53,453 nt of DNA. Source: Escherichia virus TH37. Positions within the stretch are counted from its first letter, which is position 1. Every line of letters starts with the position of its first letter. The stretch is taken from the sequence record MT446409.1. One strand, given 5' to 3'. Shown in pieces: positions 16,601 to 45,131 of this stretch. Under the pieces are notes generated by a model, which was given only the letters and a program-made list of their open reading frames with translations, did no database searches and was not told the origin of the DNA. The translations under genes were made by a program, and so were the position numbers.

Positions 16601-17345
16601 AACCAAGTTGAGGAAGAGAATCCATGTATGAAACTCTTGGCCCCGACTTATTACCTACATTCATTGCAGATACAGCAGCAACTTCACGGAAGTTTTGCGG
16701 CAATTCTGATTCTAAACGTTTGGCTACACGATAAACATCTCGTGCATAGCGGTCTGGGTCGTCATATTGTTGACGGTCAACATACATATGAGCAAGATAG
16801 CCCATAGATTTGGCAATATCTCCACGGTTTGTAGAGTATTCACCCATAATGTCACCAGCGTAATGACCAGGAAGTTCCGGCATTATATCTTGATGACCTG
16901 CCAGCGTATCACGCATGTACGCATTAAGCATTCCCCAATGACCTTCTGGTTTGTTTGGGTTTGCTTTAGGCATGTGCATCCACACATCATCGGTGGATAC
17001 ACCTAATTTCTCCATGTAGGCATGAACAGCTTCTACATGGTGACTTGGACCGTTCATTGCAGCATGGAATGTTTCAGTAAGCCCAGCACCAGAAATCATC
17101 TGTGCAACGTGAGCTGAGTCTGAAATCATGTCGGAAGTGCCATAAGAGATGCCATCATCTTCTGTATAGGTTTCTTCCATAAGCTGTGAATTTGTTTCCA
17201 TCCAACCAGAGGCAGCACTTGATTCAAGTTGCTGTGCCATATCTCGTTTGCGCATACCTGGATTGAATGACAGACCATATTGAGCACCTAAGCCAATCAA
17301 TTCGGCTTCGGACATTCTCATTAAATCTTTTATGTTATTAGCCAT
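13671..17345 (-). CDS. Tape-measure-like large tail protein with internal lambda-Exo/YqaJ nuclease domain, Gly-rich segment and C-terminal lytic transglycosylase domain
   Basis: 1224 aa between GT chaperone and baseplate genes; residues ~450-640 QGTQEWLDFRKQYDITGSTVGS...SPDGLIGDDAIWEHKNP...YMDQIQFGMLVSG collinear with lambda Exo; residues ~1040-1130 EESGNRDL...GAKGRMQV SLT-like. Confidence 0.6.
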   Translation of the reverse strand: MANNIKDLMRMSEAELIGLGAQYGLSFNPGMRKRDMAQQLESSAASGWMETNSQLMEETYTEDDGISYGTSDMISDSAHVAQMISGAGLTETFHAAMNGPSHHVEAVHAYMEKLGVSTDDVWMHMPKANPNKPEGHWGMLNAYMRDTLAGHQDIMPELPGHYAGDIMGEYSTNRGDIAKSMGYLAHMYVDRQQYDDPDRYARDVYRVAKRLESELPQNFREVAAVSAMNVGNKSGPRVSYMDSLPQLGSESIVGDIQHPRQPLNASGLPLGSMGSGIKAEYSLSASLSGSPGWSDASKSLYQDVSGVVKSAAKVYAGGSERGMNAYRTQSSDRDLILDSASRYTDLADARSGYDNLKKDIGDDPRYSGASIRGVLENAHQYNEAEISKTFDPAERLRNTGPVELNPSTEFIAQLDSPTSWNSARSRRESIAIANLDSAVPQPEPQQGPIKFHNMEQGTQEWLDFRKQYDITGSTVGSFLGNNEYTRPWAAMVDKVGLQRGKGPSEFTQRMFEAGHRTEEIARNRVAKEFGFDIEQAGAITNDNYPSFMYSPDGLIGDDAIWEHKNPQRAGKFANLSAGDHKDYMDQIQFGMLVSGRSRALFSQTIGDTTKSEWIDKDEGWYDRNKDKIDSVIGRLNAGREFVEANPDLSNDDLIKGARAAMTGDGLWKDVKQRSNRGYSPAAGTPDDPFIGNRTDAGVGAATASAVGADSTTGNDLMAVSVKKGILAAQEENKLRGQDADFGGGDGGRSGGFWDNIDASSYGISGGGSGGGGGRRGWQAGGSFGDDFGRMGGALAAGVAGGSIGSLSNGAMNAMMMTPWGRVAGMAIGATQIGNEALEGLNDFYGNSLDAGVNNPNEYSSMSQGMEMLGLNSQQANRLNQTTHSAYNTLLNGDPSGAVNIVQGTRGLITIGDIRQAQGDPVTLARVMRERGQERGWSQARIAGAMQMAGLDGMARAYDRTEYSMGEAQENVQRGADSNYAEGVAQLGIAQTERAGVLPGYAVPQAAISYGSTFIEAGGDAARVMRMTSNGAADAERNVYDFIAGEESGNRDLNADGSVVTSPTGAKGRMQVLDSTSRDPGFGVTPARDNSLEERARVGRDYYDAMLKRYNGDAEKAMAAYTDGAGTVDDAINKHGTDWLNAVPLQAQNRVKKYREWASQGDSIAEGATGFTRNGLSYGQTQATVVNVEVKATVNNKQASATVSTPNGQTVTQTINMGNGAMERR

Positions 17346-26055: not shown

Positions 26056-28091
26056 GCCGAGTAGTTGGCACTTGGGCCTGAGAATTCGATTGCAACCATA
26101 TCTGAAACGTTATCGACACAATCGTCGTGTCCAGTACCACTACCCAAAGAAGTGAATCCAAGTATTTCACGTCTAACGTGGTCAATGTGTTCATGACCAG
26201 CAGGGAAGAATATCCTCTTTTGGGAGAAATATGGGATTGCGTTAAGGAATCGAGTTACCTTGTCATTACCGTTAATGCCATCACGAGGCAGTGGTAAAAC
26301 TCGGACACTCCCATCTCTAATAAATTGTTGGTTTAAGAATTGTCCAGCAGACTTATCTTCCATGTACAAAGCACGAGGAATACAGCCTACAGATTTCAAA
26401 TCCAACTTGTTGCATTTGTTCCAGAAGTCGATGATAGCAGTCTTGAGTTCTGGAGTTTCAAACTTGCCGAGCATGATATCTAAACAATATACATCACGCT
26501 CTTTAGTCACGCCCCAATGCTTAAGGACCGAATAGTCAGAATAAGACTTGGCAGTTGATGCCGTGTCAGCAGTGATGAAACTTCTAACTATGCGACTTCT
26601 GTCGAAAGCGTCTGGCTCATACTCTTGCCACCAATCTTCTTTAACAAGGCCATGACCTTGAGCAGATGGGTCGCCAGCATACTGTGAATTGTATGTGTAT
26701 GGGTTCGACTCTTTCATTGCCTCCAGAGATTCTAAACTCTTACGTGAAGGCCACAATGCAGACTTCTCTTCTTTCCTGTTCAAATCATAGAGAATAGGGA
26801 TAGCATGAGTGTAGTTCTGCTTCTTAATTAATTTGTCGTACCACTGAGCACTGCCAACACCTTTCTCAATAATCGCTGGGATATTGAGATAATGGTATTT
26901 ATCGGAGGAACCACCACGGAGTATATAACCAACTAAATCTTGGTCATGAACTCGCTGCATGATGATAACCATTGGAGTACGTGAGCACTTGATTTGGTTT
27001 CCACGCGAATCGGTTATGCACCCATCATTGGCAAGACGGGACATAAAGGTGTTATCAAATCGGTCGTTGATTTCTGCTCGAACTGTGTCGGAGTAGGCAT
27101 CCTTCGGCTTGATAACGTCATCCACCACAAAGCAACCAGAGTAGTTTGCAACGAGAAGTCCAGCACCTTTACCAGTCAGCTTACCGCCAGTAGGTACTGC
27201 GTGCATAACTCCAGCTTTGGTCGTACCCCAGCGTTCAAGAGAACGTTTGTTTGGGTCGATTCTCACCTTCGGGAATATACGTTGGAACAGTGGGTCCATC
27301 ATCACAGCACGAATGTAACCACTCGATTCAAGAACAACGTCTTCTGCATACGAGGTGATAATGTTATGGCTTGATTCATTGTGGCAAAATGAATACAAGG
27401 GCAATGCAATACTCATAAGCTGGGTCTTAGAGTGTCGTGGGGGAATGGTCACTATTAAGCGGTCAATCTCGCCATCAACAACCTTCTGGCCAACACTGAA
27501 TATTACATCGTGAAAGTCTTGTGCTTGAAATGGAAATCCCATCTGAATATGGAACTGCCATTTACCAAAGGCTTCGAAACTTTTCATCAAGATTTTGCGA
27601 ACACGTTCTGCAACCTTGGCAGGGATTACAGTTGGGTCCACGTTATGTGGGTCATGCAGAATCTTGTCTACAAGTTCGTCGGTGTTATCATGTTCCGAGT
27701 TTGGCTCCTCCAATGTGGAACCTGCAACACGGTCAGTAACACCTGCTTGAATACCTTTCTTCAACTCGTCGGCATACGCAGTCGAGTCTTTCTTGTCGCC
27801 AGAGCGAAGACGCTCAAGTTGTGCTCTGAAAACGGAACGCAATACAGCATCGTTTTCAAGACCCTGGCCTTCTAACTCTGCTTGAATTTGTTCTTCATAG
27901 CTGTCAACTATCGCAGAGTTTTCTGAAATATATCGACGGAGCAATGGCAAAGATAGAATGCAGAATCTTTCTCTTGAGACTTTTAAAACGTCACCGTAGT
28001 GTTTGGCCAGATACGTGGCAATAGTATCGTCAAACTCGGGTCCAAGATTTTCAGTCTTTGACATTGATTCGTTCTCTTTGGTTTTAATCAC
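26046..28091 (-). CDS. Terminase large subunit
   Basis: 681 aa; deviant Walker A (PPRHSKTQ), Walker B-like CFVVDD, C-terminal acidic nuclease-like region; precedes portal. Confidence 0.6.
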   Translation of the reverse strand: MIKTKENESMSKTENLGPEFDDTIATYLAKHYGDVLKVSRERFCILSLPLLRRYISENSAIVDSYEEQIQAELEGQGLENDAVLRSVFRAQLERLRSGDKKDSTAYADELKKGIQAGVTDRVAGSTLEEPNSEHDNTDELVDKILHDPHNVDPTVIPAKVAERVRKILMKSFEAFGKWQFHIQMGFPFQAQDFHDVIFSVGQKVVDGEIDRLIVTIPPRHSKTQLMSIALPLYSFCHNESSHNIITSYAEDVVLESSGYIRAVMMDPLFQRIFPKVRIDPNKRSLERWGTTKAGVMHAVPTGGKLTGKGAGLLVANYSGCFVVDDVIKPKDAYSDTVRAEINDRFDNTFMSRLANDGCITDSRGNQIKCSRTPMVIIMQRVHDQDLVGYILRGGSSDKYHYLNIPAIIEKGVGSAQWYDKLIKKQNYTHAIPILYDLNRKEEKSALWPSRKSLESLEAMKESNPYTYNSQYAGDPSAQGHGLVKEDWWQEYEPDAFDRSRIVRSFITADTASTAKSYSDYSVLKHWGVTKERDVYCLDIMLGKFETPELKTAIIDFWNKCNKLDLKSVGCIPRALYMEDKSAGQFLNQQFIRDGSVRVLPLPRDGINGNDKVTRFLNAIPYFSQKRIFFPAGHEHIDHVRREILGFTSLGSGTGHDDCVDNVSDMVAIEFSGPSANYSAWM

Positions 28092-28269
28092 AATCCACTA
28101 ATGGCTGAGTTTGCACGGGATTGATGCGAATGATGTTGCCCAAACTAGAATCGGCCTTTAAATACAGGCGGTTTAGTGGCATGTATGAATCACAGATAGG
28201 ACATTGTTGGGTGATGAAATCATCCTCTGCCACTTCATAATGGCAGTTACTACATTGAATTGTGCGCAT
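28084..28269 (-). CDS. Small zinc-ribbon protein
   Basis: 61 aa with CSNC...CPIC. Confidence 0.35.
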   Translation of the reverse strand: MRTIQCSNCHYEVAEDDFITQQCPICDSYMPLNRLYLKADSSLGNIIRINPVQTQPLVDCD

Positions 28270-28323
28270 AAGCGACTCCGAATAAGATAGGAGGCCAGAT
28301 AGCCTCCCTATTATGCGTGCCGC

Positions 28324-28653
28324 TTAATATTTAATATCGCTCCAATCCATATCTTTAAAGAAGTCTTCAAGATATTGTTGGGTAGAACCAACAACCACCA
28401 CAACCTTAAATGGCAGTATTAGCGGCTTTACAGCCGACATTAAATCTTCGCGCCCACGCTTGATACGTTCGACGTTCTTGATTGTATTTTCACCACGAGG
28501 AAGCATGAAAACGATAACATCCGCACCTGTTTCATTGCGCGTTGCAAGTGCACGGGTGAGATAAGTACCACCGCCAGTTGAAGTGACGGTGGATTTCAAA
28601 TATGCAAACTTGACTTTGCGATTATTTACAACAACAGGTGAGGACAGTTTCAT
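28324..28653 (-). CDS. Hypothetical protein (possible Rossmann-like nucleotide-binding fold)
   Basis: 109 aa; next to dUTPase. Confidence 0.3.
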   Translation of the reverse strand: MKLSSPVVVNNRKVKFAYLKSTVTSTGGGTYLTRALATRNETGADVIVFMLPRGENTIKNVERIKRGREDLMSAVKPLILPFKVVVVVGSTQQYLEDFFKDMDWSDIKY

Positions 28654-28682
28654 TCAGATAGGTTCCAAATAGTTACTAATTA

Positions 28683-29135
28683 CTAAACTCGTCCAGTTGA
28701 ACCAAGCCCACCTTCACCACGAACAGTGGAATTTAAGTGGTCAACTTCAACGAAATGGTGTTGAGTAGCTTTACTAACTTGCACTTGACAAACACGTTCG
28801 CCTGGTTGAATAACAAAGGCTGTGTCCGAGTCGTTGTGCAGCTTAACCATAAGATTACCGCGATAGTCGGAATCCAGAATGCCTGTGCAGTTTGCAAGGC
28901 GAATACCAGACTTAAAGCCGTGACCAGAACGGCTATGCACTTTGAGTTCGTATCCAATTGGTACTTCGAACTGGAGGCCAGTATCGACAACAACAGAAGA
29001 GCCGGGATTGATAACAACAGTGGTATCGGATACAGTACAAACATCAGCAGCAGCAGCACCAGCAGTAGCGTACACAGGTAATTTCGCATTAGGATGCACT
29101 CGTTTAACTGCAACAACTTGGGTCATACAAGACAT
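28683..29135 (-). CDS. dut: dUTP pyrophosphatase (dUTPase)
   Basis: 150 aa collinear with E. coli Dut: PVYATAGAAAADV, GILDSDYRGNLMV, IQPGERVCQ, RGEGGLGSTG. Confidence 0.9.
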   Translation of the reverse strand: MSCMTQVVAVKRVHPNAKLPVYATAGAAAADVCTVSDTTVVINPGSSVVVDTGLQFEVPIGYELKVHSRSGHGFKSGIRLANCTGILDSDYRGNLMVKLHNDSDTAFVIQPGERVCQVQVSKATQHHFVEVDHLNSTVRGEGGLGSTGRV

Positions 29136-29137
29136 GA

Positions 29138-29779
29138 TTATTTCTCTACTTGATAAGTTACGCGTTCAATCCAGTTGAACACTTTGAATACAGAATCACC
29201 CACTTTACCATCAACTAAATGCTCGTCCACTGTTACGCGGGTAGGTGTGTCTGGGAGGTTGATGTATCTGCGAGAATCGCCCGTGAAATCAAAACCATCA
29301 CGATGCAAACGCACAATGAGGACAAAATCATAAGCAGACTCAATGGCAACGACTTCATCACCAAAACCGCCATCGGGATAAATGACATTAATAATGCCAC
29401 CCATACGCCCCGCGAGTTCTTCAACACAAGCAGCTTCAACCTTACCGAAGTAGTCTTGTCCGTGGCGAGGTTTATACACGTCTTCGCTAACGTGAATAAG
29501 AGCCTGACGAGGTGTTCTGCCACCAAGACCTGCAAGGGAGATAGAGTCTTTGAGGTCACGGTCCGAAGCGTAGTGAATAAACTTGTCCACATCAACTTGA
29601 AAGTGTTTGGCAGTATGCTCATACAGTGCATCCTTAAACTGGTGTTTAGTGAATCGGCGCTTACCGAGAAAGTATGATTCCTCAGCAGCAACTATCTTGT
29701 TGGCAATTGTATCTTTACCACAGCCAGGTGGGCCATTAAGAATGACAGCTAAACGCTTAATCAAAACTTTCCTCACTCT
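29138..29779 (-). CDS. P-loop nucleotide/deoxynucleotide kinase (start uncertain, likely GTG/TTG near 29767-29779)
   Basis: Walker A LNGPPGCGKDT; listed ORF start overlaps the ligase gene, so a near-cognate start is proposed. Confidence 0.55.
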   Translation of the reverse strand, partial: RVRKVLIKRLAVILNGPPGCGKDTIANKIVAAEESYFLGKRRFTKHQFKDALYEHTAKHFQVDVDKFIHYASDRDLKDSISLAGLGGRTPRQALIHVSEDVYKPRHGQDYFGKVEAACVEELAGRMGGIINVIYPDGGFGDEVVAIESAYDFVLIVRLHRDGFDFTGDSRRYINLPDTPTRVTVDEHLVDGKVGDSVFKVFNWIERVTYQVEK

Positions 29780-30512
29780 TGTCTGTGCGAAGACGTACCA
29801 AAGAAGGGAAGCGGAATTTGCCAGCTTCTGTCTTCTCACGATATCGAACTTGCATAATCGAACCAACTAGCTCGTTACGATGTTCCCACAACCACTTGCG
29901 GATTTCAGTGTTTGATTCTGGAATACCGTGGTCTGCCAGACAATCTTTCACCATTGAGCCAGCACTGCCGTAGTTAGAGGATATAGAGCCACACATACCT
30001 TTGAGAGCACCAGTACCTTCTTTCATACCAGTAATCTTCACATCGGCGTATTTGTATGGTACAATCTTCCACCACTTACCTTTTGCATCACGGACAATGA
30101 TACCTTCATGACCAAGCGCCAGATATTTATCCATCAATGCCTTAAGGTTTTCATTGCTTGGGTCTTTGCACCAGCCGATGTACAGGCGTGGGTCAACAGC
30201 ACCATCGCTCAACTCATACACATTGTCCTGGGTTAGAGGGATGCTTGGCGGGTCAATACGTCCGAGGATGCTAGAAGTCTCATTCCAACTATTACGGAAT
30301 ATCTCAGCATCTCTGAACTGTAAGTGGTCCAAATGAGGTAGGGGTTTGGAATTACGACTCCAGACACTACCTGATTTATTACGGATAGCTCGAATTCCGT
30401 CAATCTTGATGAAGAGTTCACAGCGCCCTTTGATTCGGCAGTCTGGGTCTTCCCAATCATGTGCGTGAGCCTTTGTGTATCTTGTACCATCATCGAGGAG
30501 CTTAATAGACAT
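29757..30512 (-). CDS. Minimal ATP-dependent DNA ligase
   Basis: 251 aa with adenylation motif I ELFIKIDGIRA (KxDG). Confidence 0.7.
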   Translation of the reverse strand: MSIKLLDDGTRYTKAHAHDWEDPDCRIKGRCELFIKIDGIRAIRNKSGSVWSRNSKPLPHLDHLQFRDAEIFRNSWNETSSILGRIDPPSIPLTQDNVYELSDGAVDPRLYIGWCKDPSNENLKALMDKYLALGHEGIIVRDAKGKWWKIVPYKYADVKITGMKEGTGALKGMCGSISSNYGSAGSMVKDCLADHGIPESNTEIRKWLWEHRNELVGSIMQVRYREKTEAGKFRFPSLVRLRTDKSEESFD

Positions 30513-31026
30513 TAAGATTCTTTCTCAGGTATTCTCGAACAGCATTCTTGCGTCCGATTTTGGTTTTAGGGATTGGGTCAATCTTGGCAAGTTTGCACTT
30601 AGCAATTTGCTCGTTATCCTTTAATTTGGCAAATGCAATACACTTCTTCTCTATGACTGCATCTCGACGAGATACTCCATATCGTTCCATGTATGTGATG
30701 ATGCCATGACAATCATGACACAACAGTTCCAAATCTTCTGGTTGAACCAATAAAAGGTTGTCCACAAAACGGTGAAGGTCTTCCAACTTAAGGAGGCCAC
30801 CAACCTGAACTTTGTGGTTTACTTCAATCTCTTTGAGCTTATACAACTTCTTGCAGTGGTAGCATTGAATGTGGAAGATTGGTTTCTTTGAGTCACCGAC
30901 CTTCAATGCAATGCGTCGAGATTGTATAAGCGCAAGTTTGCTTGGGTGTTTAGACCAAACACTTCGAATAGCAGATTGGAGCCAAGATACAAACTTGGCT
31001 TCCGTTCCACAATAACCGTAAGCCAT
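30502..31026 (-). CDS. HNH endonuclease
   Basis: 174 aa; EVNHKV ... CHDCHG motif. Confidence 0.55.
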   Translation of the reverse strand: MAYGYCGTEAKFVSWLQSAIRSVWSKHPSKLALIQSRRIALKVGDSKKPIFHIQCYHCKKLYKLKEIEVNHKVQVGGLLKLEDLHRFVDNLLLVQPEDLELLCHDCHGIITYMERYGVSRRDAVIEKKCIAFAKLKDNEQIAKCKLAKIDPIPKTKIGRKNAVREYLRKNLNVY

Positions 31027-31037
31027 TCCAACTCCAA

Positions 31038-32063
31038 TTATTTCTGGAGGTACTCTTCTTGAGTGAGGATACGATTCTCTTTAAGGTCAAAGTATTCGTT
31101 AATGTTCTTGTAATGCCACAGGCGAACACAATTTCCCTTTTCAACTTGATGGTGCATGTAAACAAGACGGCCTACTTTGAGTAGCTCTTGTTCCCAACCA
31201 TCTCCGAAGCGCATAATAAATGCACCAATAACTTTCTTCAAACCTTCTGCATAGGAGGTTGTACCATCCAGCATCTCGAATGAAGCAACTGCACCAACGC
31301 CATCACGACGGAAATAAGTTTCTCCGGCTTTGGCACCAGTTTTGTAAATCTTTTCTTCAAGAACTCCGCAACCCATAACGTTATCCGTTGAGTCACCAAT
31401 AAGCAATTGATGCAGGAAGAATTTAGGGCCATTGCCTTTAACTTCTTTCTTCTTAGATTTACCGTTGTCTTTGATAATTAATTTGAGTTCACCATAATCC
31501 TTCGGGATTACAATCTTCTCACCAATACCCTGAGATTCACGCTCCCATTGGTAATGTTTAATTACCGGACCAACACTACCGTTCTGCCCGATTTGTCGCA
31601 AGTCTTTGTCCAGCGACGCAATCCAGACTTCATCATATGTGCAAGGACCAATGCGCTTGAGGCTCTTAATCTCATTACGTTTGCCTGTTGTAATTTCGTA
31701 TTCATGGCGAGCGAATACGGCCAGAAGGTCATCTGCTTCCAGACCCTTCATCCAATACCCATTCCATGCAACGAGCAAGTGGGCCTTGGCATTCTTCAAA
31801 TTTTCTGGTCGCCACACGTTATCGCGATTGCCTTTATAATTTTCGGCAAACACGTTTCGCATTGTCTTAGAAGGAGATACGAAACCCATAACATGAGTTG
31901 CGCCAGAACGCTTCGACAAGAACTCCATCTTAGAGTCCATTGACATTTGAATCTTTGAGAAATTTATATCCTCTGGCTCTTTCCCAAATTCTTCTGCCGC
32001 ACAATGACTAAATGCCACCATATCAAAATCGACCAGCAAAAGAACTTTCTTCTTACTTGCCAT
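31038..32063 (-). CDS. 5'-3' exonuclease / flap endonuclease (T5 D15 / T7 gp6 family)
   Basis: 341 aa; VLLLVDFDMVAF, LEADDLLAV, IASLDKDL, LIGDSTDNVMG acidic clusters. Confidence 0.7.
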   Translation of the reverse strand: MASKKKVLLLVDFDMVAFSHCAAEEFGKEPEDINFSKIQMSMDSKMEFLSKRSGATHVMGFVSPSKTMRNVFAENYKGNRDNVWRPENLKNAKAHLLVAWNGYWMKGLEADDLLAVFARHEYEITTGKRNEIKSLKRIGPCTYDEVWIASLDKDLRQIGQNGSVGPVIKHYQWERESQGIGEKIVIPKDYGELKLIIKDNGKSKKKEVKGNGPKFFLHQLLIGDSTDNVMGCGVLEEKIYKTGAKAGETYFRRDGVGAVASFEMLDGTTSYAEGLKKVIGAFIMRFGDGWEQELLKVGRLVYMHHQVEKGNCVRLWHYKNINEYFDLKENRILTQEEYLQK

Positions 32064-32481
32064 TTAGTGCTTCTCCATTATCTCTGTGCCATTCAGCATG
32101 ATGCTTTCTGCACAGCCAACGTATAACCATTGGCTTGAGGTAATCGTCGTGGTGAGCAATCGCTGATAAGTTTCCACAGCACTCACAAGGTTGTTTTGAA
32201 ATCTTCCCTCTTCGCAGCGCATCATTCACCATGCGGTGTGCACGAATTTTGTTTGGGAAGCCATTACGATATGCAGCAGACGACGCATACTTGGTTTCTT
32301 TATTGCTTGCCAGGTAAGCCCGTTGATGCTCTTTTATCCTACTAGAGTTTAGATTGTAATGCTGTCTGCTTCTCACATTCTTGCAAGATTTGCACATAGT
32401 ATCATGACCATCCTTACTCTTCTTGGTGCAACCAAAGTCAGTAAGAGGTTTGGATTCACCACAAATGCGACAACACTTCAT
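32053..32481 (-). CDS. HNH endonuclease
   Basis: 142 aa; CRIC...CKSC zinc motif and AHHDDY...WLCRKHH HNH core. Confidence 0.6.
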   Translation of the reverse strand: MKCCRICGESKPLTDFGCTKKSKDGHDTMCKSCKNVRSRQHYNLNSSRIKEHQRAYLASNKETKYASSAAYRNGFPNKIRAHRMVNDALRRGKISKQPCECCGNLSAIAHHDDYLKPMVIRWLCRKHHAEWHRDNGEALNGK

Positions 32482-32522
32482 TTAAACTCCAAATTAAAGG
32501 CTCCCGAAGGAGCCAATTATAG

Positions 32523-33386
32523 TCAGAACGGCATACCATTGCCGCCAGCAGCACCACCTTCCGCTTCACGCTGTGCTTTTGCAGCAGCCTGTGCTTCCAG
32601 TTCAGCTTTCATTGCTGCATCAACTTCTTCATCAGAAGCCTGATTCGGAACAGAATCATCAGCAGGTTTACCGCCCAGCAGAGCAGACAGTTTGGTTTTG
32701 TAGAAGTCAACACCAGCAGTGATGCGGTTCTTGATTGCGTAAGGAGAATCGCCACCAGGCAGCTTGTTGAACACTTCTAAGTCTGGCTCAGACATGTCGA
32801 AGAATACAGTCGGGTTAACCAGAGCTTTGGCTTCTTTCTTCTCTTTGGACTTCATTGGGGAGAAGGTAGCAACCTTGTTCGCGACCTGACCAGCGTTCTT
32901 GCCAGACTGTTTGGTGTATTGAACAATGCCAACAACCAGAGGTTCGCCCAGCCAATCTGGCAGGTTCTTAGCAGGGTGGCCCTGAATACTTTGTTCCAGA
33001 TTCTGTTTAACTTCCAGAGCATCAATCGCCTTAGCGAATTTGTAGATGTGGGAGTTCTCACCCATGAAGCCATCAGCATTATAGGTAAACTCAAAGTCAA
33101 ACCAACGTGGCTTGTCTTCAAGATTCTTCGCCATCATGATGCCGTCATCTTCGTCCGGGTCTTGGACCATGACCATTTTGCCTTCGCCATCAACTTCTTT
33201 CATGTACTCGTCGAGCAGCTCGAAAGTTACGAGAAGTTTCAGGGATGGGTTTGGATATTTAGCAGAGCCTGGCTGTAAGCCCAGGTCGATAATACGGCAG
33301 ACACGAGCAGGATAACCACCCGCTTCCAGTAATGGTGCAGCAGAAGGAGTCTTGTTCGAGGCCAGAGTAGGAGCAGCAAATGCCAT
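32523..33386 (-). CDS. Putative ssDNA-binding/replisome accessory protein with Gly-rich C-terminus ending in Phe
   Basis: 287 aa between DNA polymerase and exonuclease genes; C-terminus ...EGGAAGGNGMPF. Confidence 0.3.
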   Translation of the reverse strand: MAFAAPTLASNKTPSAAPLLEAGGYPARVCRIIDLGLQPGSAKYPNPSLKLLVTFELLDEYMKEVDGEGKMVMVQDPDEDDGIMMAKNLEDKPRWFDFEFTYNADGFMGENSHIYKFAKAIDALEVKQNLEQSIQGHPAKNLPDWLGEPLVVGIVQYTKQSGKNAGQVANKVATFSPMKSKEKKEAKALVNPTVFFDMSEPDLEVFNKLPGGDSPYAIKNRITAGVDFYKTKLSALLGGKPADDSVPNQASDEEVDAAMKAELEAQAAAKAQREAEGGAAGGNGMPF

Positions 33387-33413
33387 TTTGAGTACCTTTA
33401 AGTTTCAGTTTGG

Positions 33414-33686
33414 TTAATCCACTTGCAACATTGCAAGGCGGAAGTCATATCCAACTAATGCTTCGGACAGCTCTTCAATTGAAGTTGTTGCCGAGATTAA
33501 AGTTTGGAGGTTTTTGAATGTCTCATCGTTAAATGCTTGAGACTGTGGGTCAGACGAAGCGAACACCTCGCCCTTAATCTTTTCAAGGAACGCCATTACG
33601 GCGTCCTTTGCTGGAACTTCGGAATCAGCAGCAAACATATGGTGCTCTAATTCCTGCATATCGAAAATAGAATATACAGTTTGCAT
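33414..33686 (-). CDS. Hypothetical protein
   Basis: 90 aa co-oriented ORF. Confidence 0.3.
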   Translation of the reverse strand: MQTVYSIFDMQELEHHMFAADSEVPAKDAVMAFLEKIKGEVFASSDPQSQAFNDETFKNLQTLISATTSIEELSEALVGYDFRLAMLQVD

Positions 33687-35620
33687 TAGTGAATCTCCGC
33701 GTAGTTATCACCGAACTGCACATCACATGCACAATCACGGTTAAGTTTGAGTTCTTTGTTGGTACGTTCCATTGCCTCATTAAGCAAGTCCGTCCACAAG
33801 TCACGGAAACCTTTCTTAACTTGGAGAATCAATTCATCGTGGAATTGTCCAGACAGAAGCGGGTCGCAGCCCCAACGTTCGTTACAAATTGCAATGATGT
33901 TGTTACACCAGATATCAAACACATATGCACCAGTACCCTGACACAATGTGGAGAATCGGTCTTTCTCTGTACGCAACGAATACCAGAATTTGTTTACTGG
34001 ATTCTGTTGCCACATCTGACCATCAATTGTTACAACTTTGGTGTTTGCAGCAATCTCTTTAATAGACCAGTTCAGGTCCCAATATGCTTTATGCAGACGT
34101 GCAGCAGTAGCCTGGTCACAGTCAGCAGAACGAGCAACAGTTGGAATACCAGCACCATACTGACAAGCATAGTTAGTGGTCTTAAACATTGGACGTTGTT
34201 TACACTTCTTAATTCCGTCCTTGTGGTCCTGAGATTCCTGTTCGGTGATAAATCCACCAATTACGCCGATTGCAAGGTGAGCATCATAGTCTGGTGCCAA
34301 CTGCTTCTTAACGTATTCAGGGTCATACATCCATTGGAAGTGGTGCTTACAGCGGTCTTCCAGTGAACACAAGTCAGAGCCTAACTGCTCGTAGTCTTCG
34401 CGCCACGCTTCCAACATTGAACGAAGCTCTTCACCGCCAAATACGCGAATAGAAGGGAGGTTAACAAGTTCGCGGTGTTTAAGACGTAAAGTATTGGTAA
34501 GACCACCGCATCTTGCAGTAAGGAATCCATCTTCATCGACGTCGCGAAGGAAACCATTAACAACAGACAGACGGTGTTTATACACGCCCATCCCAATAAG
34601 ATGTTGAATACCAGAGTCGGGGTTTCTTTCTGCCAGCTTATGCAAGCTCGGACAAATTTCGGGATTGCCATCTTCATCCTTGACCGTGATTTGAGGAATC
34701 TGGCGAGTCTCGCCTGTCTCTTTGTTACGGTCAAACTTAAATGTTTCTGGAACCCAGCCAAGGCTGAATAACCAATCTTTGATTTGTACGTGAGAACCAG
34801 CGTTAGGTTCTTTGTAACCCTTGAGCACCTTAATGTGCAAGTCTGGGTCTTTCCAGTCCAAACCGTTTGCATCACAGACAGCCTTCCACTTAATACCAGT
34901 TGCAGACAATTGTCCATTTAACTTGTGGCATTTGGCAGGACGCGACTTGATGACATATTCGGGAACACGAGGCATTGATGCTTCCAACGCATCCGTCTTC
35001 TCTTTAATCATTGGTTCCAGCTTCGCTTTAAATGCGTAAGCCTTCTCCATGTTCAGCTTCCAGCGAGTGCGTTGTTGAATAACTTGTTGACGTGCTTTGG
35101 TCATAAGGTATTCAATAAAGCGCTTAACTTCGCCAGGAGTTTTATAAATCTTGAGGAGTTGAATATATTGCTGTTCCCACAGCTTTAGCTGAATCTTACA
35201 GTCTTCCATCACACGATGGTTATATTCTTCCTGAGTTTGATTTTCCCAATCATCAATGACTGGTTTCGGCACACCAAACTCTTCTCCATAACCTTCTAAG
35301 CCGTGCTTAACACGACGAGGTTGCAGATACCAACTGATAAACAAAGTATCAATTAGTGTACATTTTGAAACGTCATAACCCAAGAACTTCAATGCTTCAA
35401 AGTCAAAGGTTGCGCCGTTGTGCATAATTAATGTTGGACCTGAGTCCAGGAATGCTTGAATGGATTTACGGTCAGTCCACTCTGTTACAACTTCTTCACG
35501 GGTTTGAACATCAATGTGTCCAATGTTGTGAAGACGTGGGGCAGCTTGTTTCCTCATCTGCTCCAACAAACCAGTTGTTTCAATGTCACTGGCATACATG
35601 TTATTCCAAGGATACAGCAC
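33686..35620 (-). CDS. Family A DNA polymerase (T7-like) with 3'-5' exonuclease domain
   Basis: 644 aa; Exo I motif SDIETTGL; motif B RPMFKTTNYACQYGAG; motif C LSGQFHDELIL. Confidence 0.85.
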   Translation of the reverse strand: MLYPWNNMYASDIETTGLLEQMRKQAAPRLHNIGHIDVQTREEVVTEWTDRKSIQAFLDSGPTLIMHNGATFDFEALKFLGYDVSKCTLIDTLFISWYLQPRRVKHGLEGYGEEFGVPKPVIDDWENQTQEEYNHRVMEDCKIQLKLWEQQYIQLLKIYKTPGEVKRFIEYLMTKARQQVIQQRTRWKLNMEKAYAFKAKLEPMIKEKTDALEASMPRVPEYVIKSRPAKCHKLNGQLSATGIKWKAVCDANGLDWKDPDLHIKVLKGYKEPNAGSHVQIKDWLFSLGWVPETFKFDRNKETGETRQIPQITVKDEDGNPEICPSLHKLAERNPDSGIQHLIGMGVYKHRLSVVNGFLRDVDEDGFLTARCGGLTNTLRLKHRELVNLPSIRVFGGEELRSMLEAWREDYEQLGSDLCSLEDRCKHHFQWMYDPEYVKKQLAPDYDAHLAIGVIGGFITEQESQDHKDGIKKCKQRPMFKTTNYACQYGAGIPTVARSADCDQATAARLHKAYWDLNWSIKEIAANTKVVTIDGQMWQQNPVNKFWYSLRTEKDRFSTLCQGTGAYVFDIWCNNIIAICNERWGCDPLLSGQFHDELILQVKKGFRDLWTDLLNEAMERTNKELKLNRDCACDVQFGDNYAEIH

Positions 35621-35686
35621 AGTATGGCTCCAATGGATTTGGTGAGGTCTACGCTGGTGGGCGAACCATGCAGCGTAGAAGCTCTG

Positions 35687-37450
35687 TTATTGATGTGGAC
35701 CGTTCTTCTTAGTAAGTTGAACAATCTCTTTGGTTTCGAACAAGGAGTCGTCCCAAGAACGTTGAATGATTCGACCAGAGTCTGAGTCATAATACGTCTT
35801 GAAGCCTTCTGTCTTACCACTCTTACGAGCTTTGATAGAACGAATGATTGAGCAGTTTGGGTCTACTGCCTGGCTATTACGCTCAAAGCCAAACATGCCA
35901 TGAGAATACTTAGCAGCAGCACGAGAGCCAGTAAAGTCTGACTTCTTGATTCGTCCACCATCTTCATGAGGTCGCTGACCTTTTGCCACAGGGTTAAGGT
36001 GCGACAAAATATTAACATGGAACTGATATTGGTCTGCCAGCTTAGTAATGTCTGCATACAGCTTGCCTAAGAAGTCGTTCTTCTCTGAGGCAGAAATCCC
36101 TTCCGATAAGTAGGTTAAGTTATCAAGAACAAACATATCAATGTCTGGACCAATCTGACGAAGAATCGTCTTTAACCCATCCCAAGTTTCATAAGGGTCT
36201 TCTCCAGCTTGCTTTCGGTCCCAAATCTCCATGTTACGAAGCATCTTCGCAGCAGTCTGACGGAACTTCGCTTCATCGTATCGAGGGTCTTCACGAGTAA
36301 ACGCAGGTTCCCAATACGGCAAGTTGTCGTTGAGGCCAGCCATACGGCGTAATGTTTCCGCAGGAGTTTCCTCCATGTATGCAGTAAACACTCCCCAATC
36401 ATGCTGAATGATGTTGTGATGCACAATCTGACGGGACAGGGTAGTTTTACCACCACCTTCTGCACCACCGATTGTAATAACTTCGGCTCGACGTTGACCA
36501 AACATTAAGTCGGTTAACTTGGGCCAAGGATAATCCACACCTTGTTCAACCTCATCATCAAGCTCTTCCATAAGAAGTTCTTTGTTGACAAGTGCTGTAG
36601 GTAGAGGACGGGCAGCACGGAATACAACAGCAGACTGAGTAGCTTTCAGTAAGCCACGTTTCAAACAGTCGTTGGCATCGTTGGCAGGAAGTGTGGCAAT
36701 CATTGCACCAGGCAGTAAACGACACGCTTCCTTTGCAGCTTTACGACCAGGTTCATCATCATCAAATACGATAACAACCTGCTCCCAACGTTGCTTGATT
36801 TCTTCTGCAACTGGTGACAAACATTTGTGTACGGAATCACTTCCATCACTCAAACTAATTACAGCAAAATCCAAATCTTCATATGCACCACCACGGTTCA
36901 TAGTTTTGAGGATTTGACGCAATGCGATACAGTCTTCTTCACCCTCTGTGATGAACAGAGTCTTACCGCCAATTGCTTTTGCAGCCAACCAATTGTAGGG
37001 TTCGTTGCCTTGTGTGTCACCAACCGACCACATAACTTTCTTGTTCAGAAGTTTAATCTTCCAGCGAACAAGTTTGCCATTCTTGGTATATCCATGGGCC
37101 AAGGCATTTGGAGTCTTGCCATCAAACTCTGAATAGAGTAGGCGAACACCAGCAGCTTTCCAGAACTCCGGTTCAATACTGCGATGGTCTAAATCAAATG
37201 GAGGGCACGAGGTTATTTCGTCAATTTCTTCCTGAATTTCTTCTGGAGTCTTGACTTTAATTTCCGGAATATTCTCCGGATTATTGCCGTACGGATTCGG
37301 AACGAGAACGCCACATGCAAAGCAGTAACCAGAGAAGTTCTTATTACCAGCTTCATCGACATTCAACCAAACCTGTAAAGACTTGCCAGATGTGGATTTA
37401 CAGTCTGGTACATCGTGCTTAATCTTGGCAACACATTGCTTGACGTTCAT
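35687..37450 (-). CDS. Primase-helicase (T7 gp4-like)
   Basis: 587 aa; N-terminal Cys4 zinc ribbon, TOPRIM-like middle, Walker A GGAEGGGKTT. Confidence 0.8.
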   Translation of the reverse strand: MNVKQCVAKIKHDVPDCKSTSGKSLQVWLNVDEAGNKNFSGYCFACGVLVPNPYGNNPENIPEIKVKTPEEIQEEIDEITSCPPFDLDHRSIEPEFWKAAGVRLLYSEFDGKTPNALAHGYTKNGKLVRWKIKLLNKKVMWSVGDTQGNEPYNWLAAKAIGGKTLFITEGEEDCIALRQILKTMNRGGAYEDLDFAVISLSDGSDSVHKCLSPVAEEIKQRWEQVVIVFDDDEPGRKAAKEACRLLPGAMIATLPANDANDCLKRGLLKATQSAVVFRAARPLPTALVNKELLMEELDDEVEQGVDYPWPKLTDLMFGQRRAEVITIGGAEGGGKTTLSRQIVHHNIIQHDWGVFTAYMEETPAETLRRMAGLNDNLPYWEPAFTREDPRYDEAKFRQTAAKMLRNMEIWDRKQAGEDPYETWDGLKTILRQIGPDIDMFVLDNLTYLSEGISASEKNDFLGKLYADITKLADQYQFHVNILSHLNPVAKGQRPHEDGGRIKKSDFTGSRAAAKYSHGMFGFERNSQAVDPNCSIIRSIKARKSGKTEGFKTYYDSDSGRIIQRSWDDSLFETKEIVQLTKKNGPHQ

Positions 37451-37455
37451 TTATA

Positions 37456-43237: not shown

Positions 43238-43253
43238 TCAATTCCAACTAATG
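43238..43253 (-). promoter_or_regulatory. Conserved phage promoter-like motif, copy 3
   Basis: Plus TCAATTCCAACTAATG. Confidence 0.45.
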
Positions 43254-43323
43254 TTTCAGAATTATTCCAATATTCCAAACAAAAAGAATAATAAGAATAA
43301 ATTAAAATAAATGAAGAAAGTGC

Positions 43324-43353
43324 TTGACACCCATTTGGCGATAGGTGTATAAT
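43324..43353 (+). promoter_or_regulatory. Near-consensus sigma70-type promoter on the antisense (plus) strand
   Basis: TTGACA at 43324-43329, 18-nt spacer, TATAAT at 43348-43353. Confidence 0.4.
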
Positions 43354-43378
43354 GCCTTTCTTCCCTAAGTGGTCAGAA

Positions 43379-43394
43379 TCAAATCCCACTAATG
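43379..43394 (-). promoter_or_regulatory. Conserved phage promoter-like motif, copy 4
   Basis: Plus TCAAATCCCACTAATG. Confidence 0.45.
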
Positions 43395-43464
43395 TTTCAG
43401 ACTAAAGCCGAAGGCCAATGCGAGTACAAAACCCGCTTGGCACTTCGAAGAAACCCGCCTGGAA

Positions 43465-43701
43465 CTACAGTGCTTTCCAATCTGAGTCAAACAGTTCCTT
43501 TGGTCTTGAATAAATTATCGAATCAACACCAAAGAAGGTATGACTTCCATACTTCTTAACTTCCTGGTACGCAAACCCATCCACCCAATTACCGCAGTGG
43601 GTTTTAATCTTTGTAGCAAACAGGATTCGATAGTAGTGGCCGCGTGGCTGGTGGAAGAGAATATCTTCTGGCTTGATTGAGTTAATATTTAAATCACACA
43701 T
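43465..43701 (-). CDS. Hypothetical small protein
   Basis: 78 aa co-oriented ORF. Confidence 0.35.
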   Translation of the reverse strand: MCDLNINSIKPEDILFHQPRGHYYRILFATKIKTHCGNWVDGFAYQEVKKYGSHTFFGVDSIIYSRPKELFDSDWKAL

Positions 43702-44251
43702 TTAAGAACAATACCCCTTCGGAGAAGATGTAGTCACTGCCGAAGTCTTTTACAACTGCTTCCCAATCAATATATGGTCTGAGATTATCTGGAACCTCAA
43801 ACACATCATCTTGCTTTAAGTAGTCTGCAATTGAATCACAACGAGTAATGAACATGTTGTTCAAGTCGTCAACAGTGAAAATGTCAATTTCATCGCTACG
43901 GAATGCAGCAAGAATTATATCCAAGTCAGTGTCAGTAAGTAGTTCGTTGAACTTATCATACTTGCGAATGCTGAATAGGCCATTGGCAAAGCAAACTTCT
44001 GTTACATCTGCCTCACTTGATTCAATTACGTCATATGCACCAGCTTCTGGGTATTCGATGCCGTATTCCTCATGCAAATACTCCCGCATATTGAAGTCAT
44101 ACAGTCGCCAGGCCAGGCCATCAATCCAAGCATCTTCATACTCGGAATTGTTTTCGCCTGTGTAGAAACGAACCAATAAGGTTTCATCTCTACGCCAGGA
44201 CTTAAGTTGTTCTACTGCTTGAATAATTAAGTTTTTCATCGGATGCTCCAT
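43694..44251 (-). CDS. ArdA-like antirestriction protein (acidic DNA mimic) candidate
   Basis: 185 aa, highly acidic; C-terminal VPDNLRPYIDWEAVVKDFGSDYIFSEG resembles ArdA C-terminal region as recalled. Confidence 0.45.
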   Translation of the reverse strand: MEHPMKNLIIQAVEQLKSWRRDETLLVRFYTGENNSEYEDAWIDGLAWRLYDFNMREYLHEEYGIEYPEAGAYDVIESSEADVTEVCFANGLFSIRKYDKFNELLTDTDLDIILAAFRSDEIDIFTVDDLNNMFITRCDSIADYLKQDDVFEVPDNLRPYIDWEAVVKDFGSDYIFSEGVLFLNV

Positions 44252-44254
44252 TGA

Positions 44255-44764
44255 CTAGATTTTGTTTATGTATGCAAACTCGCCATGATACCTGAGTGCA
44301 GCAGCATTGTACGCCCTTGCCGCATCTTCTGGAGTATTGAAAGTGCCAAGGCATCTTCTTACACCATTCTCGGATATTCTGGCAACGTACTTGCCTCTAC
44401 TGCTTTTGTGGACACCTTTGTATCCAGAGGTGTTGGAGGTCGACACTCCTACGTTCATCAAGTTTTGTTTTGCAGACACATCACGAAGATTCTCAATTCT
44501 GTTGTTAAGGATATTCCTATCAACATGGTCTATAATCTTTGGGATATACCCATGATGTAGCCAGAATACTATCTGGTGAGCTTTCCATTTTGTACCTTCG
44601 ACAGATACTCTTAAGTACCCATCACTACACACATACCCAGCAACGTCTCCCGTACGAGCTTTTGGGCTAGTGGTTTGGGTTCGAATAAGGTTGCCCGTTT
44701 CTGGGCAATACCTTAAATATTTATCGAACCTTGGATTATTTCGGGAGTTCGAAATGAGGTGCAT
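44255..44764 (-). CDS. HNH-AP2 homing endonuclease
   Basis: 169 aa; HNH_3-like GYLRV...HQIVFWLHHG...IDHVDRN and AP2-like GYKGVHK...GKYVARI...GTFNTPEDAARAYN. Confidence 0.65.
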   Translation of the reverse strand: MHLISNSRNNPRFDKYLRYCPETGNLIRTQTTSPKARTGDVAGYVCSDGYLRVSVEGTKWKAHQIVFWLHHGYIPKIIDHVDRNILNNRIENLRDVSAKQNLMNVGVSTSNTSGYKGVHKSSRGKYVARISENGVRRCLGTFNTPEDAARAYNAAALRYHGEFAYINKI

Positions 44765-45131
44765 CCAAGAATTTAGCCCATTTAATAGGTTCTTCGTAGT
44801 GGGATAGCCACGTCGCCCCCCACCGTATAGTAATTCCCAATTCCTGTGCTGCCGAAAACATATGTTTAGCTAAAATTCTAAACCGTTCGAGGTCATTCCA
44901 GTCAATTGGATATGGTGCAATGTCCAAAGCGTTGCCTGACATGTGTCGGCTAACAGAAACTTTGGTTGCACCCTGCTTTAAAAGCTCTTGTTGACGTTCA
45001 TAAGAGCGTAAACCTTCCAGAACAGTTACATCAAAAGGCATGGTTTCACATGCCCGTTTGAAAACTGCCACTAATGAAGGATTTACTCCCTTAAGTCGGT
45101 CTAAAGAACGTTGGCCGAGCTTAACATTCAT
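44736..45131 (-). CDS. Peptidase M15 / LAS-family zinc peptidoglycan peptidase
   Basis: 131 aa; SRHMSGNALDIAP and DAPHFEL zinc-binding motifs. Confidence 0.55.
   Translation of the reverse strand: MNVKLGQRSLDRLKGVNPSLVAVFKRACETMPFDVTVLEGLRSYERQQELLKQGATKVSVSRHMSGNALDIAPYPIDWNDLERFRILAKHMFSAAQELGITIRWGATWLSHYEEPIKWAKFLDAPHFELPK

Follow-up and report, generated by a model that had tools for sequence, protein, structure and literature searches.

Are the HNH endonuclease genes that lie among the replication and early genes of Escherichia virus TH37 mobile elements, or do some of them belong to the core gene set of the phage? The window that we analysed is the whole 53,453-nucleotide (nt) stretch of record MT446409.1, and it contains three such genes, here called HNH1, HNH2, and HNH3 (Table 1). 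The original prediction held that all three look like free-standing homing endonuclease genes inserted between essential genes, that they mark likely hotspots of mosaicism, and that a synteny comparison with related phages should show presence/absence polymorphism of each. We found the three open reading frames (ORFs) exactly where they had been placed, all on the minus strand (174, 142, and 169 amino acids (aa), respectively), with HNH1 and HNH2 flanking a 5'-3' exonuclease gene that lies between them. Our comparison suggests that HNH2 and HNH3 are free-standing homing endonuclease genes and that HNH1 is a non-mobile core nuclease, a joint reading to which we assign a probability of about 0.75. 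The earlier interpretation was partly supported, appearing right for two of the genes and wrong for one.

The window represents a phiEcoM-GJ1-like phage of the Chaseviridae. A megablast search with positions 28000-36000 returned 43 records at 90-95% identity, all of them phiEcoM-GJ1-like phages of Escherichia and Yersinia (Chaseviridae, Cleopatravirinae, Carltongylesvirus-type), and the farther relatives found in this way have Erwinia, Pectobacterium, Proteus, Pantoea, and Aeromonas as hosts. With RefSeq duplicates taken out, the set of close relatives comprised 31 distinct phages, to which the window shows a backbone identity of ~91-95%. Each HNH gene was searched by blastn against 50,697 phage records, and two regions from 16 relatives and five outgroup loci were compared with neighbouring genes mapped throughout; IMG/VR was the source of 10 related exonuclease loci only. 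The insertion sites of HNH2 and HNH3 (sites 2 and 3) were typed in all 31 relatives from the span of junction-crossing queries, 15 of the 31 by alignment span only.

Two polymorphic HNH genes and their insertion sites

The synteny comparison revealed the expected presence/absence polymorphism at sites 2 and 3. At site 2, 23 of the 31 relatives are empty, three carry the window's allele of HNH2 (allele A, 94-98% aa identity), and five (Mangalitsa, Bp10, and PYps3T/4T/16T) carry allele B, which has the same length of 142 aa and the same junctions and is only 41-43% identical. The sole carriers recovered by blastn with HNH2 were SKA49 (97.9%) and PYps23T and PYps16N (91.1%). A 4HA13-like metagenomic phage has a further allele, 64% identical, in this slot, and there too it overlaps the exonuclease gene by 11 nt. 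All three outgroup genera that were typed (loci L008, L011, and L012) were empty at this site, which indicates that empty is the ancestral state. We also observed a 182-aa gene with a RyR domain (PF02026) in the p862-exo slot of 4HA13 (L007, 4412-4960) and of the metagenomic contig L118 (1933-2481), in the latter together with an HNH2-like gene.

The junctions of site 2 are precise. In empty sites, the stop codon of p862 is followed by ~42-48 nt containing the hairpin GGCTCCTTCGGGAGCC and TTTAATTT, and then by GGAGCTTACCAAA-GTG, the start of the exonuclease gene. HNH2 lies between the ribosome-binding site of the exonuclease gene and its start codon: the upstream element of hairpin, T-rich tail, and GGAG is identical in phages with HNH2 and in those with an empty site, and in the window the ATG of HNH2 follows this GGAG, the original exonuclease ribosome-binding site. 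The 3' end of HNH2 is GGAGAAGCACTAAATGGCAAGTAA, which supplies the exonuclease gene with a new Shine-Dalgarno sequence (SD) and ATG, and it overlaps this gene by 11 nt (ATGGCAAGTAA).

HNH2 also stands at a sharp break in sequence identity. The first ~350 nt of the exonuclease gene are 67-76% identical to the empty-site phages and 86-99% identical to the allele-A carriers, while the p862 side of the site is 91-97% identical in all typed relatives. Between the window and SKA49 there are 13 mismatches over positions 31825-32490, a 98% tract against ~10% divergence on either side.

The protein encoded by HNH2 has the predicted architecture of an HNH enzyme, with a CxxC...CxxC zinc ribbon at the N-terminus and an HH...WLC...H beta-beta-alpha motif at the C-terminus (C4xxC7, C30xxC33, C99xxC102, H110-H111, W122, C124, H128, and H132), of which C99, C102, H110, H111, C124, H128, and H132 are invariant. 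Its AlphaFold model has a predicted local distance difference test score (pLDDT) of 94.5 and places the beta-beta-alpha element at residues 108-135. The best PHROG match, phrog_2340, is named 'endonuclease', and families named 'HNH' and 'endonuclease VII' were matched as well; neither HNH2 nor HNH1 had a direct match in Pfam, NCBIfam, or PDB sequences, by single sequence or by profile. The HNH2 family is scattered over 508 phage records of many kinds.

At site 3, between the endolysin gene and ardA, five relatives are empty, 25 have an insert of ~270-290 nt, and a single one, Yersinia phage PYps23T, has HNH3, at 99.8% identity against a local backbone identity of 87.6%. In empty sites, the endolysin TAA is followed by CTTCATCA and then by ATGGAGCATCCGATG, the start of ardA. 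In the window, 484 nt separate the endolysin stop from ardA, and the stop codon of HNH3 is 3 nt before ardA (TAG-TCA-ATGGAGCATCCGATG). The reading frame of HNH3 differs from that of the endolysin gene, and its first ATG falls 29 nt within the latter, so that the first ~10 codons coincide with the endolysin 3' end and the true start of HNH3 is uncertain. The insert of ~270-290 nt encodes a 96-aa ORF (MEHPMEYQEIP...) in the 10 relatives typed directly (e.g., L094, 28584-28868). This ORF takes up the start region of ardA, for which a new start is then used.

The HNH3 copies of the window and PYps23T share a tract of 774 nt with 0 substitutions and one 1-nt indel at 44715. The flanks of this tract are 52-88% identical, with mismatches resuming 6 nt into ardA and becoming dense beyond 45100, and the tract appears to mark a recent transfer. 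The indel is an extra T in a T-run of PYps23T (L002, ~3210), which shifts the frame after about codon 16; the annotated coding sequence of PYps23T is accordingly cut to 378 nt, and the tblastn alignment begins at residue 17. The copy may be decaying, or the extra T may be a sequencing error. Over its final ~150 nt (44750-44900), the endolysin gene is 60-80% identical to every typed relative other than PYps23T, against 84-100% over 44900-45100, and this 3' patch amounts to a distinct C-terminal protein haplotype. Two metagenomic alleles of HNH3 occupy the same site, at 96% and 74% aa identity, and the former shares the endolysin patch. In the latter (L106-L108), the HNH half is 90-100% identical at the DNA level and the AP2 half 62-80%, which suggests that the DNA-binding module may be shuffled at the level of domains.

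The description of HNH3 as an HNH-AP2 gene is consistent with the profile searches. HNH3 was the only one of the three proteins to match Pfam HNH_3 (PF13392), with 50.9 bits against a cut-off of 24.8 over residues 61-102, and its AP2 match (PF00847; 30.3 bits, E 5e-7) fell just short of the cut-off of 33.3. Most of its homologues carry a precomputed PF00847 assignment, and its PHROG match is phrog_99 (6e-61). The family is multi-copy (3474 places in 2206 records), and the closest database relatives of HNH3 outside site 3 are <50% identical.

Because both genes are polymorphic at precise sites and stand beside identity discontinuities, HNH2 and HNH3 look like free-standing homing endonuclease genes. 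Taken together with the patchy distribution of their families, these are classic signatures of intronless homing, as far as they can be read from sequence, and such signatures have been described for T4 and ICP1 (PMC2988022, PMC2790892, PMC10055350). A likely course of events can be sketched. Each gene would fill a precise intergenic slot beside an essential or conserved gene, leaving the expression of the neighbour undisturbed; HNH2 would do so by using the exonuclease ribosome-binding site and giving the exonuclease gene a new SD and ATG. Upon co-infection with an empty-site relative, the nuclease would cut the empty allele at or near the slot, and repair from the HNH-bearing genome would copy the gene along with a few hundred bases of flank. 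Such copying of flanks could yield the divergent patches at the exonuclease 5' end and the endolysin 3' end, as well as local mosaic boundaries.

The closest comparison is with the homing endonucleases MobA-E of the T-even phages, of which mobE has been characterised. These are likewise small HNH genes between DNA-metabolism genes, show presence/absence polymorphism among close relatives, and are inherited together with their flanks, creating mosaic boundaries (PMC2790892, PMC2988022). In contrast to the Mob genes, HNH2 has no detectable Pfam HNH relation and gives the SD and start codon to a downstream essential gene. HNH3 resembles the HNH-AP2 homing endonucleases, which are multi-copy, patchily distributed in phages, and found at the boundary of genetic exchange (PMC10055350); it differs from them in an AP2 score just below the Pfam cut-off, and from the ICP1-like 'IPA-HNH' class, which has no canonical Pfam HNH_3 match, in matching this profile directly. 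HNH-AP2 homing genes have been described, as have homing endonuclease genes that lie at the boundaries of recombination (PMC10055350), the presence/absence of HNH ORFs between GJ1 and ST32 has already been reported (PMC6266442), and the genome map in the Chaseviridae profile of the International Committee on Taxonomy of Viruses shows homing endonucleases (PMC12842549). The phenomenon is therefore well known, and HNH2 and HNH3 are new members in a phage group where it was already noted.

Table 1. Positions of the features of the window, with strand and the basis of each assignment.
Feature	Coordinates	Strand	Basis or remark
ATP-dependent DNA ligase gene	29757..30512	-	ORF and profile matches; overlaps HNH1 3' end by 11 nt (ATGTCTATTAA)
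HNH1, predicted core HNH-family nuclease gene	30502..31026	-	174 aa; phrog_1985 3e-59
5'-3' (FEN-like) exonuclease gene, HNH2 upstream and HNH1 downstream	31038..32063	-	phrog_107 2e-56; Pfam 5_3_exonuc_N 5e-6, under curated cut-off
Divergent 5' patch of exonuclease gene linked to HNH2 (putative hitch-hiking or co-conversion tract)	31700..32063	-	identity profile
HNH2, putative free-standing homing-type endonuclease gene	32053..32481	-	142 aa; phrog_2340 9e-35
HNH2 3' end with GGAG (32073-32076) and exonuclease ATG (32061-32063)	32053..32076	-	junction alignment
Terminator-like hairpin GGCTCCTTCGGGAGCC (32499-32514) with T-rich tail and GGAG (32487-32490)	32487..32514	-	alignment
Anti-restriction (ArdA-like) gene	43694..44251	-	phrog_14321 2e-53; junction alignment
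Zero-substitution tract against Yersinia phage PYps23T	44246..45019	-	alignment; HNH3 and 255 nt of endolysin gene
HNH3, putative free-standing HNH_3-AP2 homing endonuclease gene	44255..44764	-	169 aa; Pfam
Endolysin (M15 peptidase) gene	44736..45131	-	Pfam Peptidase_M15_4

A conserved HNH gene between the exonuclease and ligase genes

The genes of the HNH region are all on the minus strand, and HNH1 was found between the exonuclease and ligase genes in all 31 close relatives and in the other Cleopatravirinae genera sampled. The order exo-HNH1-lig held in each of the 17 exonuclease-region loci that were typed directly. A blastn search with HNH1 matched 80 phage records from all Cleopatravirinae genera, including every close relative at 89-94% and other genera at 70-77%, and the match adjoins the ligase gene in every record in which the overlapped features are annotated. 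At the protein level, HNH1 is 67-84% identical to its counterparts in other genera, equal to or above the exonuclease (54-74%), and its identity to the outgroups follows or surpasses that of the essential genes around it. In the Nefertitivirinae, a homologue with 43% identity lies directly after the exonuclease gene, and the ligase gene is not adjacent. By tblastn, the family was found in 614 phage records, at one place per record in every case, and the identity profile of the window against its relatives contained no tract centred on HNH1.

Compared with other genera, the ratio of nonsynonymous to synonymous substitution rates (dN/dS) of HNH1 is 0.07-0.09 with saturated dS, the same as for the polymerase, exonuclease, and ligase genes, and this saturated synonymous divergence, matching that of the flanks, points to vertical descent. 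The mobility that had been claimed for HNH1 was not borne out. The original prediction had named conservation at identical positions in all relatives, with no insertion signatures, as the pattern that would speak against it, and HNH1 holds an identical exonuclease-ligase position in all relatives and has no insertion signature; by that standard it is not a free-standing mobile gene. Judging from these comparisons, we take HNH1 to be a core nuclease of the replication/recombination module that is inherited vertically and kept by selection. We also observed that an 11-nt overlap of the form ATGnnnnnTAA is common to HNH1/ligase (30502-30512) and HNH2/exonuclease (32053-32063), and that the HNH1/ligase overlap is not kept in other genera.

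The HNH label of HNH1 rests on its PHROG match, motifs, AlphaFold model, distant family members that pass Pfam, and structural neighbours in BFVD. Its PHROG family is named 'HNH endonuclease'; the motif C55xxC58...N70-H71...N90...C103xxC106-H107 is invariant in 23 sequences; and the AlphaFold model (pLDDT 90.6) contains the beta-beta-alpha element. A search with the HNH1 profile against 1.8 billion representatives yielded 772 family clusters, some of which pass the Pfam HNH profile PF01844 that has no direct match to HNH1 itself (P0275 with 33.8 bits and P0210 with 23.8 bits, cut-off 21.4). The BFVD neighbours are named HNH or HNHc, with E-values down to 3e-14 and template modelling (TM) scores of 0.74-0.87. 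No relation between HNH1 and HNH2 was detected with hhalign (1.2%).

What might such a nuclease do? We infer, from the neighbourhood only, that HNH1 may be the endonuclease partner of the adjacent 5'-3' exonuclease. We favour this role because the genome combines T7-like genes with terminal repeats and because HNH1 is positioned among ligase, exonuclease, deoxynucleoside monophosphate (dNMP) kinase, dUTPase, and ThyX genes. Transcription and replication genes of the T7 type in a Chaseviridae-type genome have been described (PMC12842549, PMC8472413), and the genome ends in this family are ~3 kb terminal repeats, not cos (PMC12842549). HNH1 would nick or cut host DNA or branched replication intermediates, and the exonuclease would process the products, a role analogous to that of T7 gp3 and gp6 or of T4 endonuclease VII. 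The gene may descend from a Mob-like homing gene that became fixed long ago. HNH1 resembles T4 endonuclease VII (gp49), and T7 endonuclease I with gp6, only in position and proposed role, and is best described as a candidate for a small CxxC...CxxC zinc-binding beta-beta-alpha nuclease in a replication/recombination module beside a 5'-3' exonuclease. HK97 gp74, which assists the terminase, is likewise a phage HNH protein that is conserved, non-mobile, and engaged in housekeeping.

Two more specific identities were rejected. HNH1 does not appear to be an endonuclease VII: hhalign against T4 gp49 (the query sequence of which was verified against PDB 1en7/1e7d) gave a probability of 0.9% with an off-register alignment, and there was no match to Pfam Endonuclease_7. 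Several GenBank records name HNH1 'endonuclease VII'. A terminase helper of the gp74 type was also rejected, as terL is 2.4 kb and five genes away and the genome has terminal repeats rather than cos ends (PMC12842549).

The pairing with an exonuclease gene recurs elsewhere. Members of the HNH1 family were found 0-4 genes downstream of an exonuclease gene in LA93P1, PAK_P3, alia, ICP1, R16F, phiAbaA1, and a metagenomic contig (loci L103 and L111-L116), with homology of the exonuclease to that of the window confirmed in five of the seven. A tentative extension, to which we give somewhat less than even odds, is that HNH1 represents a widespread and unrecognised class of single-copy housekeeping phage nucleases, derived from a domesticated Mob-like homing gene and genetically tied to the 5'-3' exonuclease. 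Seven or more unrelated lineages would share this coupling (Chaseviridae, Nankokuvirus, Justusliebigvirus, ICP1, Saclayvirus, a Vibrio jumbo-type phage, and a metagenomic phage). HNH1 and the exonuclease would then act together in the breakdown of host DNA or the processing of branched DNA. Were this true, annotation and at least one paper still count the HNH1 family among the homing endonucleases. The linkage of this family with the exonuclease gives a lead to the function of a nuclease family present in 614 GenBank records. In annotation, 'HNH' is not equal to 'homing', and a core gene such as HNH1 is unfit as a marker of mosaicism in the GJ1-like family.

Alternative explanations

Several observations weigh against the joint reading of two homing genes and one core nuclease. 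For HNH2, there is no Pfam or PDB sequence support, and the best Foldseek matches, although all to HNH enzymes (PacI, T5 SciA, and Cap5), are weak (E ~1). The divergent flanks could be donor DNA brought in by ordinary recombination. In TH26, the slot is empty yet the exonuclease is of the carrier type from about codon 9, a recombinant which indicates that the exonuclease 5' patch and the HNH2 gene are separable, and switches of haplotype are found all through the ligase, HNH1, exonuclease, and polymerase genes rather than only at HNH genes. As for HNH1, the functional assignment is drawn from its neighbourhood only, and T4 endonuclease VII, the top Foldseek match in the PDB, is a weak one (E 0.14, TM 0.26-0.28). 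The ICP1 homologue gp179 has been placed, by its domains, among the Mob-like homing genes (PMC10055350), and the constant position of HNH1 beside the exonuclease gene could be the target-site fidelity of an old homing lineage.

Some of these points would also fit a different origin for HNH2 and HNH3, namely that they are accessory ('moron') genes, such as those for superinfection-exclusion, anti-defence, or nicking nucleases, which spread by homologous recombination with their own nuclease irrelevant to the process. We consider this unlikely. That sites 2 and 3 also hold non-nuclease inserts, the RyR-domain gene and the 96-aa ORF, shows that the slots take cargo without a nuclease, which counts for the accessory-gene explanation and against homing, and pervasive mosaicism is in its favour as well. 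Purifying selection on HNH2 and HNH3 (dN/dS among carriers of 0.07-0.12 for HNH2 and 0.07-0.22 for both together) is compatible with a function useful to the phage; since all three HNH genes are under purifying selection, dN/dS does not separate mobile from core genes here. However, an accessory role accounts poorly for the membership of both genes in large families that are patchy over unrelated phages and often found beside replication genes, for paralogues of both families at at least four further intergenic sites in relatives, and for the presence of at least two very different HNH2 alleles at identical junctions. The HNH_3-AP2 combination is a recognised homing endonuclease architecture (PMC10055350). 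Moreover, at the dnap-prihel site, the adjacent 200 nt are divergent in exactly those phages that bear a homing endonuclease gene.

Somewhat more doubtful is the notion that all three genes are homing genes, with HNH1 having swept to fixation and homing still, or having done so recently, at a recognition site within the exonuclease gene. Apart from the domain-based classification of gp179 with the Mob-like HNH homing genes (PMC10055350), this would agree with the name 'Homing endonuclease HNH' given to a BFVD neighbour of HNH1 from phage phiPMW, with the 11-nt overlap of HNH1 and the ligase gene, which has the same geometry as that of HNH2 and the exonuclease gene, and with the tendency of homing genes to track their target genes across lineages. 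Against this, HNH1 is present in all 31 close relatives and in the other genera and the other subfamily that were sampled, and no identity tract is centred on the gene. Its synonymous divergence is saturated like that of its flanks, and a dN/dS of 0.07-0.09 is kept in every lineage, where a fixed selfish gene without empty targets would be expected to decay. It is also strictly single-copy in the 614 records, unlike the HNH3 family. We therefore retain the reading of HNH1 as a core nuclease.

Finally, it is very improbable that HNH2 was ancestral at the exonuclease site and was lost many times, by deletion rather than invasion: alleles of 41-98% identity in the same slot of several Chaseviridae lineages, including Erwinia phage Papaline and the 4HA13-like metagenomic phage, do suggest long residence, but no remnant of HNH2 is left at the 23 empty sites, which are uniform and clean (GGAGCTTACCAAA-GTG), the three outgroup genera are empty, the exonuclease gene would need its SD and start codon restored at every loss, and allele A of SKA49 is 97.9% identical to the window's copy against 92.6% for the backbone.

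Other insertion slots, mosaicism, and annotation

Genes of both mobile families were found at further slots in the relatives. HNH3-like genes, 37-40% identical, lie at terL-p61 (GJ1 and PYps16N), dnap-prihel (TH26), and prihel-thyX (PYps3T), and an HNH2-like gene lies at dnap-prihel in PYps23T and PYps16N. The corresponding slots of the window are empty (28084-28091 for terL-p61, 35621-35686 for dnap-prihel, and 37451-37455 for prihel-thyX). The 5' end of the polymerase gene (35400-35620) is 69-74% identical in PYps23T and PYps16N and 70-85% identical in TH26, and these are the three phages with a dnap-prihel insert. The claim that HNH genes mark hotspots of mosaicism holds for HNH2 and HNH3, which stand beside sharp identity discontinuities, and fails for HNH1; as switches also occur away from HNH genes, the HNH genes mark some mosaic boundaries but not all. 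Similarly, insertion between essential genes as free-standing homing endonucleases fits HNH2 and HNH3, with their polymorphic precise sites and identity breaks, and does not fit HNH1, which is fixed in 31/31 relatives.

Mobile HNH genes pinpoint slots that tolerate foreign DNA beside essential genes, which is of interest for phage evolution and engineering, and the p862-exo and lys-ardA slots have at least three alternative occupants each. In the case of HNH2, the inserted gene would keep its host viable by giving the neighbour its translation start. This donation of a start codon is worth noting, as is the repeated association of HNH1-family members with an exonuclease gene over many phage lineages.

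Replacement was also observed at a position that has no nuclease gene. At 33414-33686, the window has a 90-aa gene (phrog_24945) in place of which about half of the relatives, including PYps23T, SKA49, TH23-25, MLP1, and PO103-1, have an unrelated gene of ~81 aa, making this a hotspot of allelic replacement. On the minus strand, CTGAAACATTAGTNGGA occurs twice without a mismatch, at 43243-43259 and 43384-43400. The two copies, at a distance of 141 nt, fall in a stretch that is 92-100% conserved in almost all relatives and lacks any ORF of at least 60 aa, and they may be promoters for a phage RNA polymerase. An Rfam scan of this non-coding stretch (~43250-43450) gave no match, and no tRNA was found in the window.

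HNH2 and HNH3 appear to be real mobile genes, and their names in GenBank vary from 'baseplate wedge protein' to 'endonuclease VII' and 'homing endonuclease'. Propagated annotation errors were seen in MW147598, OL741059, MW147599, and PP952070. The misnamings include HNH2 as 'baseplate wedge protein', HNH1 as 'deoxynucleoside monophosphate kinase', ardA as 'tail fiber protein', and the endolysin as 'imidazoleglycerol phosphate synthase'. The host label of 'Staphylococcus phage Pel53' is doubtful, as this phage is ~93% identical to coliphages of the GJ1-like group. Lastly, the tail-fibre-like gene at 13671-17345 (1224 aa) stands out in its GC content, which rises to 0.49-0.54 within 14001-16000, compared with ~0.44 elsewhere.

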